Source: a virus (taxonomy: Duplodnaviria > Caudoviricetes). Taken from it: DNA of 64,000 bases. Below, one piece after another: positions 4,805 through 43,300 of this stretch. The notes beneath the pieces were generated by a model that was not told where the DNA came from, ran no database searches, and saw only the letters and a program-made list of their open reading frames with translations. The stretch's first letter is position 1; each line of letters opens with the position of its first letter. Made by a program: the position numbers and the translations under genes. The DNA is taken from the IMG/VR virus record IMGVR_UViG_3300022660_000043; one strand, written 5' to 3'.

Positions 4805-4881
4805 TGGTGCCGACCGCAGGATTCGAACCTGGCTACCTCGCGATTATAAGTCGCGTGCACAGCCATATGTGCTTGACCGGC
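4805..4881 (-). tRNA. tRNA-Ile (anticodon UAU), CCA encoded
   Basis: revcomp GCCGGTC...CGCGA-CTTATAA-TCGCG...CAGG-TTCGAAT-CCTG...GGTCGGC-A-CCA; full cloverleaf. Confidence 0.9.
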
Positions 4882-12617: not shown

Positions 12618-12736
12618 TGGCCCAAGACCCAGGACTTGAACCTGGACGCTACCCTGATCATTGATAGCTGATCTATTCCGACCTGCGTCTACCGTGATAG
12701 GACTTACCAACCTGCCTATACTTCCGCCAGCCTTGG
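12618..12736 (-). ncRNA. tRNA-like RNA TL1 (class II scaffold, D-loop insertion, degenerate anticodon arm, CCA)
   Basis: CCAAGGC/GTCTTGG-G-CCA acceptor; CCAGG-TTCAAGT-CCTGG T arm; TGGCGGAA...GGTAGACGC D arm. Confidence 0.75.
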
Positions 12737-12818: not shown

Positions 12819-12926
12819 AAATTTAATAGCTGTTCGTCTAACTCCATTTACTACAGCTCCTGTACCCAAGCATGACGCATTCTCAAAGCGTTTCTTGCAT
12901 CTTGGCTTTGTGGCACTATTAAATTT
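12819..12926 (-). ncRNA. repeated structured RNA motif, copy A
   Basis: AATTTAATAG/CTATTAAATT closing stem around GTGCCACAAAGCC...AGCTGTAGTAAATGGAGTTAGACGAACAGC. Confidence 0.75.
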
Positions 12927-12936
12927 AATACAGATA

Positions 12937-13055
12937 GGGGTGAAGGAGATGGGATTTCGTTACCCACAACACACCCGATATTTACTCAGGCCGCTCTTAT
13001 TACTTATCGCTCTTTACCTCAAGCTTTATAACTTCGCAATTGGCGTACTCCTTCA
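12937..13055 (-). ncRNA. tRNA-like RNA TL3 (expanded D-loop, 9-nt T loop)
   Basis: TGAAGGAG/CTCCTTCA stem; GTGGG/CCCAT arm; CCTGA-GTAAATA-TCGGG arm. Confidence 0.55.
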
Positions 13056-13103
13056 TTTGGGTTGCATGCAAAAAACTTATTTTATTCGTTCAGAAAAAAC
13101 AAG

Positions 13104-13362
13104 CAAAAACTCCTAGCTGTCAATACTTGACAAATCGTATATAGCTGCTTCCGAGCCGCCAGAAGCACCGCTAGTACGTCTCTAAAACCCAGTCATAACC
13201 GCCTACTGACTGCTAGCGCCCACTTTTCTCTAGACCTTCCCACCTTAGTCCTACACAGTTCCTTCTCATCAATCCCAGTAGATAAGCGGATCTACTGCTG
13301 TGCCCACAAATTTAGGTTGCGCTCTCCCTACAGCTTATAAACTGTTGGGCGGAGTATCCTCA
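13104..13362 (-). ncRNA. ~255-nt multibranched structured RNA, unassigned
   Basis: ACTCC/GGAGT closing; CAGTAGAT/ATCTACTG, CACAG/CTGTG, CAGTCA/TGACTG, CGCTAG/CTAGCG, GCTTC/GAAGC, TGTCAA/TTGACA stems. Confidence 0.55.
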
Positions 13363-13411
13363 CAAAAATCAAAAATCATTAAAATAAGGTCTCCTTCCTA
13401 AATAAAAGATT

Positions 13412-13515
13412 TCAAAGAGCTGTTCATCTCACTCCATTTACTACTGCTGCTTCAGGGACACCGCTTTCCGATACAGGCTTGCCTAACGCTCAATCGGCTT
13501 CGTAGCACTCTTTGA
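13412..13515 (-). ncRNA. repeated structured RNA motif, copy B
   Basis: TCAAAGAG/CTCTTTGA closing; GTGCTACGAAGCC...AGCAGTAGTAAATGGAGTGAGATGAACAGC. Confidence 0.8.
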
Positions 13516-13583
13516 TAATAAGTCTCTTGTTTTGGCAGTCCAAGCGAAGACTACGGGGAACTTCCCACGTTCAACACCAAATC

Positions 13584-13685
13584 AGACCCGGCTGTTTAAC
13601 TCTTTCCATTACCACAGCTTCTTACAACCTCACCAAATACTTCGCTCATGATCTCCATATTCAGCGCTTCGTGGCACCCAAGTCT
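13584..13685 (-). ncRNA. repeated structured RNA motif, copy C
   Basis: AGACTTGG/CCGGGTCT closing with G-U pairs; GTGCCACGAAGC...AGCTGTGGTAATGGAAAGAGTTAAACAGC. Confidence 0.75.
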
Positions 13686-13769
13686 CAGCAACTGTCAAAG
13701 CTCGTTGCACTCTTCCCTTCTGAGTTTGTTTCTCTACGAGTCTCAGCCGGTTGGCGTATTGTTCGTAGT

Positions 13770-13846
13770 GTAGGCTGGTTTTCGCATTATCCATTTACCA
13801 CAGTTTTCCTCCGTTCATGCTTGACTTCCGGCTTCGTGGCACCTAC
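13770..13846 (-). ncRNA. repeated structured RNA motif, copy D (shortest)
   Basis: GTAGG/CCTAC closing; GTGCCACGAAGCC...AACTGTGGTAAATGGATAATGCGAAAACCAGC. Confidence 0.75.
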
Positions 13847-13847
13847 T

Positions 13848-13980
13848 TGTGAGCTGTTCATTGCACTCCATTTACCACTGCTCCAGCTTCCGTCTCTTAA
13901 TCCCATATTGGCATTGGCTTCTTAGGCCATCTCTTAACTGCCGTATCTACATTAAGTCCATAGGCTTCGTGGCACTCACA
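13848..13980 (-). ncRNA. repeated structured RNA motif, copy E (longest, promoter-proximal)
   Basis: TGTGAG/CTCACA closing; GTGCCACGAAGCC...AGCAGTGGTAAATGGAGTGCAATGAACAGC. Confidence 0.8.
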
Positions 13981-13995
13981 TTATATAATACAATA
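13981..13995 (-). promoter_or_regulatory. class II promoter (TATTGTATTATATAA) driving the ncRNA block
   Basis: same motif precedes many other transcription units. Confidence 0.7.
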
Positions 13996-14024
13996 GGGAG
14001 CTTAGAAATTTAAGCTCCCTTTTT
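13995..14024. terminator. hairpin AGGGAGCTTA-N-TAAGCTCCCT insulating the ncRNA block
   Basis: 10-bp inverted repeat at end of upstream operon. Confidence 0.6.
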
Positions 14025-14725
14025 ATAATTTTTCCAATCTTTTTTCCACTGCTTTGAGTATTTGTCAAGAATATGTTCCACAATAACAGCATTACCTTGT
14101 TCTATACCACAAGATCCAGCAAAATACCAATCATCTCCGAGTAAATAATCACAGAGTATGTGTATTGCAGTCTGAGCATTAAGTGGTGGAGGATAAATAC
14201 CATAAGTAGTATCCTCAATATTATCTCTCATTAAGTCAAAGCTCTTGTTGTAAATATAATTCTCTTTCTTTTTCACGCTCCAATACCATCGCTTTCATTT
14301 TTGCTAAATCAGCTCCATCAATATATACAGTTCCACAATTTGCACAAACCAAAGGCTCTACAGAAAAACCAAAATAGCGATTAGTTGTAAGCTTTAAGTA
14401 ACAGCAAGCATCAGTAGCGTCTGATCTAAGCTTTAAAACTTGATTATACCCACAATTAGGACAACCTCTAATATTTGTCATATTTAACTCCTTATCCTGC
14501 ATCAAACATAAGTTCAGGGATCTTAGTAGTCTTCTGTCCAGGTGTAAGATTAAACTCTGTATCAAATCTGAATCTAGGTCTAAAATCACCATCTCCATCT
14601 GCATAAAAACCAACAAGAGAAGAATGTCCTAAACTACCATTTCTTTGAATATACCTCAAAAAAGAACAAAAGTCATCAACCCAGCGCTCTTCCATAGTAA
14701 CTTCAATATTAAACGTTTTTTCCAT
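14010..14725 (-). other. three small hypothetical CDSs (14010-~14230, 14236-14481 Zn-ribbon, 14492-14725)
   Basis: tiling; CPNCG...CANCG. Confidence 0.65.
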
Positions 14726-40382: not shown

Positions 40383-43300
40383 TTAATCATGATAGAACTC
40401 ATGAAGATAGCCACAGTCAATTTGCTGACCATCTTTAGTATCAATGATTTGTAAGGCATGAAAATCGTTCATGCCGCTATCTCCATCTATCATTACTAAT
40501 AAAGAAAACAAAATGCCATCTACAATTTCTTCTGTTGTTCTAGTGCTCTGCCTAAGCCAGTAGTTCTTTATATCTTTAACCTGATTAATAAATTGTTCTT
40601 GCTTGGTCATATTACTTCTTCCTCTGTAAGTTTTTTACCGCAGTAAGGACAGTATTTAAATTCCTGAGTCAGTTCTTTATCGATAACATTTCCGCTAATC
40701 CAGCCCCAGCCTTCCCAAAGGACTTTCTCCAAAGTCTTTCCACAGCAGATAAATGTCTGCTTAAAGATCTTATCTGGTTTCATCTTGGGGTTTTCTAACG
40801 AAGGCTCTTCAAGCACCTCTAGAATTATCTTATTCATAATTGCTCCTTAAGTTCTTTCATTCTTGCTATAGCTTCAGCCTCAGTCTTAAAACTCTTTTCT
40901 ACTACATAGAAGTTAGTAGAAGGCAGCCACTGCCAACAGATAAGTTCTTCACCTGTTTTAAGCTCCTCCCCATAGACACTATATTGCACCATCTTAAGAG
41001 GCTTACCCTTACGCGCAAAGTATTCTACTACTGCATATCTAGTCTCATAAGGTGCTGAATAGATTACATTAACCTTTGCTGCCCTACGATACTTCTCTTC
41101 AAATACCTCCATAGTAGTAGGTTTCTTAATTCCTGTCATATCAAAGGGCCTCCAATTCATTAAGTACCTGATCAAGCTTAGGTTGAACTACAGCAAGAAG
41201 CTCTTCTTGAAGATTCTCTCCATAAGCCTGCGCGATCTCTTCTAAGGTCTGGAGTTCAGTAATCTCACTCATCAAAGATTCATAGGCTTCTATTTTATAA
41301 AGCAAGCTGGATGCTTGTAAAGCTTTCTCTCTTGTCATATTAAAGTGCCTCTAATTCTGCTCTAAGCTCCGCTCTCTTTTTATCACAGTAATCAGCAATA
41401 AGCTTTGCGAGCTCTTCATCTGTAATTAAAATATTAGACGTCTCATCTGACTTACAAATATAAGCTTTCTTTCTAAAGAGCTTAAATCTCTGATATGGAA
41501 ATGAGCAGATAAAAGCTATCTTATCATAACGGCCAATCTGTGCTTCAAGCTCATTAGCTTTATCTATAGTTTCTTTTTTCATACTTCCTCAAGCTCCTTA
41601 ATCATAATAGGTACAATCTTAAACTCCTCGGTAGGAGCAACCATCTTTCCGGTATAACAATCCCTACCCTTGATATAATGCCAAGCCTGTTCCTCAGCTC
41701 TCTTCTTACTTACATAGATCTGAGCTTCTCTAAGCTGTGAACTAAACTTCTTAAGGCCACAGCTGTATTGGCCATTAGAGTACTTGATTACCCAAAGTCC
41801 TTTATCTGGATTCATATTACTTCTTCTCCTTCATATTAAACTGCAGGGTCTTAAGCTTAGTAGCCACATTCAGAAGATCACGGAAAGCCTGTCCCTCGGA
41901 AGTCTCTGTATAGAGATAATCAATTACCTTATCTAACTCTTTAATAGCCATATCCAGAGCTACTGCATCAGCTCTGGTGACAAAAGGCATAGCCTTATCT
42001 GCTCCAGGTCCCCAAAGAATACAGTTCTCTCCAGGCCAGCCTGCGTAGTAAAGAGTATTAGACATCTTAGTAGGTTTACATTTAATTATATATTGATGCA
42101 TCTTATCTCTCCTTATATTCAATAACAATACAAAGCTGATTATCCTTACCTGTATTTACTGCCTGCCAACTAACTACCTCAAGAGTAGGATTCTCTTTAA
42201 GCCAGTTATTAACCAGGTTATCTGCTGAGATCCAATGCTTAGTATCCTTTACGTAATAGTAATCCGAAACAAAGTGTTTAAATCCTGTTTTCATATAGTC
42301 CTCCAATTTAAAGTACTATAATATAATACAATACAAGAGTATATAAAAATAAAGCCTATAATAAATTTAATTACTATAGACTTTATTATATTAATTCTTT
42401 GACTTGCTTTTCAACATATACTCAAGCCAGTGCTCGTAGCAATCCATGTCATGGGGACACTTATCACAACCATCTGCTGAGTACATACATACAGCGTGAT
42501 AGCATTCAGGTTTAATCATCTATGTTATCCAACCTTTCGTTAAGCTCTCTAGCTTCCTCTTTAGGTATAGCTATTGCTGCCCCCATAACAACTACGAGAA
42601 AAAGAGACATAAGGCCACACAGAAGTCCGGATACAAAGAGTCCAAGAGCAGCCCAACCTGCTGCACTGAGGAAAGCCAAGAAGGCTGAGACAGCTACACT
42701 GAGAAACATAAGAGCAAGAAAGCAAGCGGCCATTTCCGCAAGACCTAGCCCTAAGCATCTAAAAAAGGGTTTCATTTCTTATCCTCCTCTGATCTTACTT
42801 TAGAGATCTTCGACATAACCTGCCAAGAAAGACGGTAGCAGGGAATATCCATGAGACCTGCTTCCTCAAGTCTCTGCGCTTTACGAGAACATCTCTCCTG
42901 TATAAAGTCAAGCTCTTCTTGTGTAAGCTCCAGAGTATAAGTAGGCTCCTTAGCAAGATCTACTCCTAGAAGCTTATATACTTCATTAGTCTTATCCACT
43001 TTAGCTAAGCCCTTTGACATCCACTTATCTACCATAGTAGGATCTTCAAATTTGTTATACATCTTTATCCTCCCCCATTCCCTCACGCAGCTCGAGGATA
43101 AGAGTAAGCACCTCAGCATAGGTAGTACCTCTACCAAGCCAAAAGGCAAAGCCTTCCTCATCTCCAGTACCTTTATAAAAAGTTTCACGTGACTTAGACA
43201 CAGCTTCTTTCTTTTTTAAGATAATAGCAGCAAGCTCATCAGCAAAGTCTTCTTTACCCTTCTTATAAAAAGATTTATAAAAAGCTGCTTCATCAATATT

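Follow-up and report, generated by a model that had tools for sequence, protein, structure and literature searches.

Five repeats in a phage genome fragment appear to encode small folded RNAs of a family widespread in large gut phages

The array and its surroundings

The window, meaning the whole stretch of 64,000 nucleotides that was analysed, is part of a Caudoviricetes record (IMGVR_UViG_3300022660_000043) of 88,373 bases with an estimated completeness of 38%. Sequence inspection located five repeat units on its minus strand, as a preliminary description of the window had reported. The array occupies a stretch of about 1.4 kb without a convincing minus-strand gene and is flanked by an 88-aa ORF (14010–14276) and by a run of NT5C, RNA ligase, Thg1, HD and metallophosphoesterase genes. 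Features of the region are given below. Positions within a unit follow a core numbering from G14 to C67, bit scores are those of a covariance model, and G004 denotes a close relative of the window's phage.

13848–13980, minus strand: unit E, scaffold with a 78-nt arm; 65 bits
13770–13846, minus strand: unit D, 22-nt arm on a scaffold whose degenerate P3 has two extra bases (G52-C63); about 37 bits
13584–13685, minus strand: unit C, two-A linker and an A..U T-loop variant; 50 bits
13412–13515, minus strand: unit B, U-A form of the covarying P2 pair; 75 bits
12819–12926, minus strand: unit A, C·A mismatch in P2, arm tip formed by a loop with a second UUUGA; 71 bits
13853–13873, minus strand: most invariant element, unit E as the example; A-rich linker, P3 hairpin (U50-A65, G51-C64, purine-purine stack), G66 and C67
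13865–13861, minus strand: T-loop pattern of unit E, inside the P3 hairpin
13980–13990, minus strand: overlapping −10-like hexamers, AT-rich, kept in relatives
13995–14020, minus strand: terminator-like hairpin 3' of the upstream 88-aa ORF; stem preserved with altered bases in G004
13686–13769, minus strand: spacer D–C, folded, 94% identical in G004, without Rfam match
13516–13583, minus strand: spacer C–B, folded, 96% identical in G004, without Rfam match
12618–12736, minus strand: CCA-ended tRNA-like RNA adjoining the array, with an insert in its D-loop

The covariance model was trained on 60 units, 58 from other genomes together with copies A and B, so that units E, D and C lay outside its training set. 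Run on the window and on the 88-kb genome fragment, it returned five copies and no more (36–75 bits, E-values from 1e-18 to 4e-8), and the best match other than these copies scored 14 bits. A count of seven copies in this genome was rejected on that result. P1 paired in all five copies, and P2 carried a compensatory change in copy B and a C·A mismatch in copy A, both as previously described. In terms of folding energy, single units were no more stable than shuffled sequences (z from −1.55 to +0.56), and the case for structure consequently rests on covariation rather than on energy.

A promoter had been proposed at 13981–13995. It was missed by a sigma-70 scan, which left the AT-rich −10-like hexamers at 13990–13980 as the only such signal seen. 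If the upstream one of these were used, transcription would start near 13979, at the fifth P1 pair. The folded spacers D–C and C–B are possibly further small RNAs. The long spacer between units B and A (12927–13411, minus strand) aligned with G004 in its downstream part, its upstream part being swapped there for other sequence. The tRNA-like RNA at 12618–12736 kept its frame in G004 (L559, about 1660–1790) with an unrelated D-loop insert, the same exchange pattern as that of the units described below.

ARAGORN and Rfam called no tRNA among the five units. Elsewhere the record contains other tRNA genes, including a tRNA-Ile with a UAU anticodon, rare in bacteria, at window positions 4805–4881 (minus strand), at the end of the repair-gene run. 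Two YrlA-like matches below the gathering threshold (L557, 4476–4609 and 5268–5367) were also found in this genome outside the window, 3' of the gene for a 661-aa protein that has no match in Pfam.

Homologues and a common core

None of the units in the window matched Rfam at gathering level, and the only hits were chance matches at E > 0.4, in line with the expectation that the motif was unrecognised. When the Rfam 15 search covered the window and 20 homologous loci, units remained unmatched and only neighbouring tRNAs, YrlA-like RNAs and tmRNA fragments were reported. BLAST against 50,697 cultured-phage records found nothing above chance.

A search for homologues collected about 280–320 distinct units. 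Scanning viral, metagenome and genome collections for exact patterns provided 284 of these; two gapped-pattern scans returned mostly chance matches, which were reused as negative control loci. Nearly all homologous units were located on phage-like contigs of 100–400 kb, and the visible sources were gut or rumen. In 50 carrier genomes of 121–410 kb the covariance model found one to seven matches per genome. Matches from the genome collection were contigs within gut metagenome bins, most of which bear the label Clostridia; this hints at Clostridia as hosts of the carrier phages without establishing it. The five repeats thus appear to encode members of a real family of small structured RNAs that is widespread among large gut phages. 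A description of the family was absent from the searchable literature, queried by topic and by core sequence, with most subscription journals outside this coverage. The family appears uncatalogued, although it could sit among the 10,006 unnamed viral candidates of Fremin et al. 2023 (PMC10690425).

Covariation in homologues bore out the preliminary description of a structured phage non-coding RNA family whose scaffold is conserved and whose inserts vary. Among 60 sequences, 93.5% of the cells were paired and 11 of 17 pairs showed two-sided changes. The covariation score was 0.369; in the same 60 sequences shuffles scored 0.116 and slid partners no more than 0.087. Kinship inflates these figures, and the slid-partner control carries the same kinship. 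Covariation in P1 was strong: five of its pairs were well kept, and a sixth and a seventh were weaker. In P2 it was seen at 18-44 (U-A in 76 units, C-G in 72) and, in rare cases, at 19-43 and 20-42.

On this evidence, the core is a three-way junction of P1, P2 and a T-loop-capped hairpin, P3. The last of these had been taken for a 3' bulge; it is in fact a T-arm-like hairpin closed by U50-A65 and G51-C64. Position 50-65 was pairable in 318 of 319 units (U-A 309, C-G 5, U·G 3, A-U 1) and 51-64 was G-C. The G52·A63 apposition became G-C in three units, and 54·61 was G·G in 237 units or A·A in 61. Positions 55 and 59 (n = 314) were occupied by U..A in 289 units, A..U in 11 and C..A in 10, which by sequence pattern corresponds to the closure of a T-loop pentaloop; the definition used for positions 55–59 was that of PMC4810234. 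Position 58 was a purine in 313 of 314 units, and U15 and G66 were invariant across units. The proposed T-loop pattern therefore held for the four copies in which it had been noticed, and copy C, which had been omitted, also fits as the A..U variant (11 of 314 units). Unit C was short of one linker A, as were eight other units.

Units that the seed patterns had missed and the model recovered had the same P3 pairs, and their linkers were two to four bases long, which tempers the seed bias without removing it. A second subclass carried one extra base ahead of the linker and different distal P2 loops. Since this subclass differs in distal P2, the universal core consists of P1, the first part of P2, the A-rich linker and P3. 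We had also taken the P2 words to resemble 16S helix 18 and RNase P P11; this presumed likeness was dropped because the central pair is U-A in half of the units.

Setting among tRNA genes and protein neighbours

A same-strand tRNA gene was present within 1 kb of 140 of the 170 units with enough flank (82%), compared with 4 of 1020 control positions (0.4%). Spacing between unit and tRNA went down to 0–1 nt. Units may begin right after a tRNA CCA or stop 4–10 nt ahead of the next tRNA, and the distance was not fixed: a tRNA end lay within 25 nt upstream in only 21 of 277 units, at distances scattered from 3 to 22. CCA was encoded by 1113 of 1266 neighbouring tRNA genes (88%), and no CCA peak was found 3' of P1 in the 277 units. 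The array in the window is atypical in this respect, standing apart from true tRNAs and next to tRNA-like RNAs.

The location of the family among tRNA genes, together with near-invariant unpaired purines and tandem copies, is what would be expected if the core were a new self-cleaving or processing ribozyme for polycistronic tRNA-cluster transcripts, with the arm as a peripheral element. Theta ribozymes likewise are small RNAs beside gut-phage tRNA genes (PMC10879173), where they sit at most 5 nt from the tRNA 3' end. The units, in contrast, had neither an HDV-type match nor a fixed register to tRNA 3' ends, as the scattered distances above demonstrate. No hammerhead core was found among them and no Rfam ribozyme matched in the window and 20 loci.

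The internal loop GAAG / GCWG presumably recalls loop A of the hairpin ribozyme. The consensus of that ribozyme has unpaired G+1/U+2 in loop A plus a loop B; in the units the equivalents of G+1/U+2 covary as Watson-Crick pairs 19-43 and 20-42, and the internal loop is missing from a subclass, so the hairpin ribozyme was rejected. Arms were, moreover, conserved across phages, which also weighs against a ribozyme with a peripheral arm. We consider this reading unlikely.

No neighbouring protein family occurred at more than about 10% of 235 loci. A genome-wide search for partners covered seven families in 36 near-complete carriers: Ro60-like DUF2828 and Thg1 were each present in 13, a reverse transcriptase (RVT_1) in eight, YqeY in five, the local 661-aa ring-like protein in four, and the adjacent RNA ligase and the upstream 88-aa ORF in two each. 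With a maximum of 13 of 36 carriers, an obligate partner among these seven was rejected. The repair genes beside the array are thus neighbours rather than required partners. RVT_1 was found in none of G000, G004, G013 and G015, of which G000 is only 38% complete. The reverse transcriptase matches in G007 (41719–42135) and G026 (81745–82347; L564) contained five in-frame TAG codons each, and these two carriers may be TAG-recoded phages. A 79-aa cysteine-rich ORF was located 130–640 nt upstream of a unit in 14 loci (including L074, L076, L095, L098, L105 and L106), which look like one phage clade.

Exchangeable arms and their possible roles

The arms were structured and 20–170 nt long, within whole units of 75–200 nt. 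The 277 arms fell into 168 families, inside which stems were kept through compensatory changes. Arms folded modestly better than shuffles (median z −0.5).

Exchange was most apparent in comparison with G004, whose RNA ligase is 89% identical to that of the window and which has the same five slots. Short spacers were 90–96% identical and the arms of slots 3 and 4 were nearly or fully conserved (C 95%, B 100%), whereas the arms of the other three slots (E, D and A) were 29–42% identical, which is the level of shuffles. Arm B was common to at least four other loci. Arm E was unrelated to slot E of G004 and similar to slot 3 of G015 (69%), and slot 1 of G004 matched slot 1 of G015 (98%). As judged from these alignments, arms are replaced in a cassette-like manner between conserved ends among close relatives; recombination would be the route of replacement. 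Arm E also contained a 7-nt anticodon-type loop (Leu AAG; 13900–13930, minus strand), retained on an altered stem in slot 3 of G013 and G015.

Arms showed no excess complementarity to their own genome, to Clostridia 16S and partial 23S rRNA, or to 1209 phage tRNAs. Antisense or mimicry directed at Clostridia 16S/23S rRNA or at these tRNAs was rejected on average, as were the occurrence of arms without the chassis, arm matches in the own genome, a bias of the arms towards Shine-Dalgarno or anti-SD sequences or reading frames, and anticodon decoys as a general rule (5 anticodon-type loops against 4.4 expected). An 11-nt tetraloop receptor in unit E was likewise rejected, being better read as a covarying hairpin loop. 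Two individual arms showed local resemblances: that of L154 (311–407, minus strand) contained a 15-nt exact match to Clostridia 23S rRNA in a hairpin, a single case borderline against chance, and an arm hairpin of L075 (5569–5662, plus strand) equalled a phage tRNA T arm over 15 nt.

Constant ends, a variable middle and unit turnover in arrays are features that the family shares with UG27 arrays (10.64898/2026.09.22.753630), and they would suit a guide, antisense or template RNA for a nuclease, a modifying enzyme or a reverse transcriptase (CRISPR-, TIGR-, C4- or UG27-like). The non-coding RNA arrays of UG27 reverse transcriptases are also phage arrays with variable central hairpins and conserved structure. 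The units differ from them in having no linked reverse transcriptase, a core of highly conserved primary sequence and a tRNA-cluster location, and the UG27 motif AUC-N7-UANAG occurred in 0 of 319 units. Arms of 20–170 nt that are paired and conserved by structure, the lack of excess matches in the own genome, rRNA and tRNA, and a reverse transcriptase in only 8 of 36 near-complete genomes and in none of the closest relatives make such a role very unlikely. A CRISPR or guide array in particular was rejected on account of the uneven structured arms, the lack of excess matches and the finding that no neighbour family occurs at more than about 10% of 235 loci.

Two subtypes of arm, both defined post hoc and covering a minority of arms, had recurrent loop features. 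In the short-arm subtype, GC-rich palindromic hexamers of the kissing type occupied the apical loop in 5 of 16 families (0.58 ± 0.71 in shuffles), and one arm family alternated between the palindromes CAGCUG and CCAUGG; over all arms the enrichment was weak (14 vs. 8.2 ± 2.7). In the non-GAAG subclass, 29 of 63 arms carried a second UUUGA (8.1 ± 2.7 in shuffles), often on a T-arm-like hairpin. The main subclass was not enriched in a second T-loop (13 vs. 9.3 ± 2.9).

The covarying palindromic loops of the one subtype, the paired T-loops of the other and the absence of an obligate protein among those tested point towards RNA-only self-assembly, in which the core would be a rigid joint and the arms oligomerisation modules for dimers or cages, as in ROOL, GOLLD and manA. 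These are also phage RNAs, found near tRNA islands or in phage genomes, with loop-loop contacts and no known protein partner; the location of ROOL and GOLLD near phage tRNA islands (10.1101/2024.12.08.627333) and the possibility of cages from RNAs under 200 nt (10.64898/2026.07.01.735769) count in the same direction. However, neither loop feature occurs in most arms, the palindrome is lost in one orthologue pair (L131 vs. L139), and complementary pairs between different arms were not found among the 277 arms. ROOL, GOLLD and manA are Rfam families of fixed architecture, which the units do not match; the units are 75–200 nt long with exchangeable arms. Self-assembly seems to us improbable, although it is compatible with the explanation preferred below and the two are not exclusive.

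The second T-loop bears on the suggestion that the RNAs bind tRNA elbows. Here the core T-loop and a second one would intermesh in the manner of T-box Stem I, RNase P (L11/12) and the L1 stalk, with the arm selecting a tRNA that is shielded or sequestered. The T-loop motif is common to all of these RNAs, and the interdigitated double-T-loop motif is required for elbow binding (PMC4810234). The core pattern, the tRNA-cluster location and the enrichment of a second UUUGA loop in one subclass, where the core loop is mostly UUUGA too, agree with the suggestion. Against it, the known elbow binders have two interdigitated T-loops, and in the units the second is at best a sequence pattern in one subclass; the main subclass has no such enrichment, complementarity to tRNAs is not in excess and single T-loops are common folding motifs. 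The part of the earlier proposal that concerned the core loop pattern was confirmed; elbow binding as a whole is a decidedly doubtful reading.

Of the three functions initially suggested, a guide-like role found no excess complementarity and a processing ribozyme no fixed tRNA-end register; a decoy or binding role would fit best. The explanation that we prefer, to which we give an even chance, is that a stable scaffold released from tRNA-type transcripts displays interchangeable structural arms. Covariation, the tRNA-cluster location, arm exchange, the loop features of the two arm subtypes and the absence of tested partner proteins are the reasons for this preference. The RNAs would be small, stable and trans-acting, combining a constant chassis with an interchangeable structural arm. 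They would be transcribed together with tRNAs and released when the neighbouring RNAs are processed. P1 may stack on P3 in the way of tRNA acceptor and T arms, possibly through U15·G66, and the T-loop may dock an adenine of the P2 arm to give a nuclease-resistant RNA-only fold. The arm would be the business end, acting by shape through kissing loops, T-arm mimics or other folds, most likely as a ligand or decoy of host factors that bind RNA, cut RNA or act in translation, and its repertoire would turn over as in a host-phage arms race. Several observations count against the scaffold explanation: invariance of the core exceeds what a passive scaffold would require, seed bias explaining part of it; arms fold only modestly better than shuffles; anticodon-type loops are not enriched; and the palindrome and T-loop subtypes are in the minority.

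More tentatively, the family may be a modular protein-free RNA display, in which a chassis resembling the top half of tRNA carries hundreds of arms that neutralise host RNA-targeting defences or grip tRNAs or ribosomes and are reprogrammed by recombination at the conserved ends. That the arms of such a display comprise kissing loops, T-arm mimics and rRNA-like pieces is a conjecture we put forward jointly with it and hold just as loosely.

In outline, the arrangement of a constant handle and a variable domain resembles Y RNAs or the stable RNAs of T4. Y RNAs (YrlA, RF02553) with Ro60 share this plan and are found in the same clusters; the units differ in having no YrlA match, and Ro60-like DUF2828 is encoded by just 13 of the 36 near-complete carriers and the local ring-like protein by 4. 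The T4 rnaC and rnaD (species 1 and 2) RNAs are likewise small stable RNAs in a phage tRNA cluster, 120–140 nt in length. They keep a tRNA-type T arm and 3' end, whereas the family described here has its own core and no encoded CCA, and the covariance model did not match T4 rnaC/rnaD.

Phage tRNA clusters have harboured small stable RNAs of unexplained role since T4 species 1 and 2. The RNA class described here appears to be real and uncatalogued. If its core proved catalytic, it would represent a new class of ribozyme. For RNA structure and engineering, a compact scaffold from nature able to hold arms of 20–170 nt is of interest, and a constant, recognisable core in hundreds of phage sequences, together with a natural series of arm swaps between nearly identical relatives, makes the function of these RNAs directly testable.
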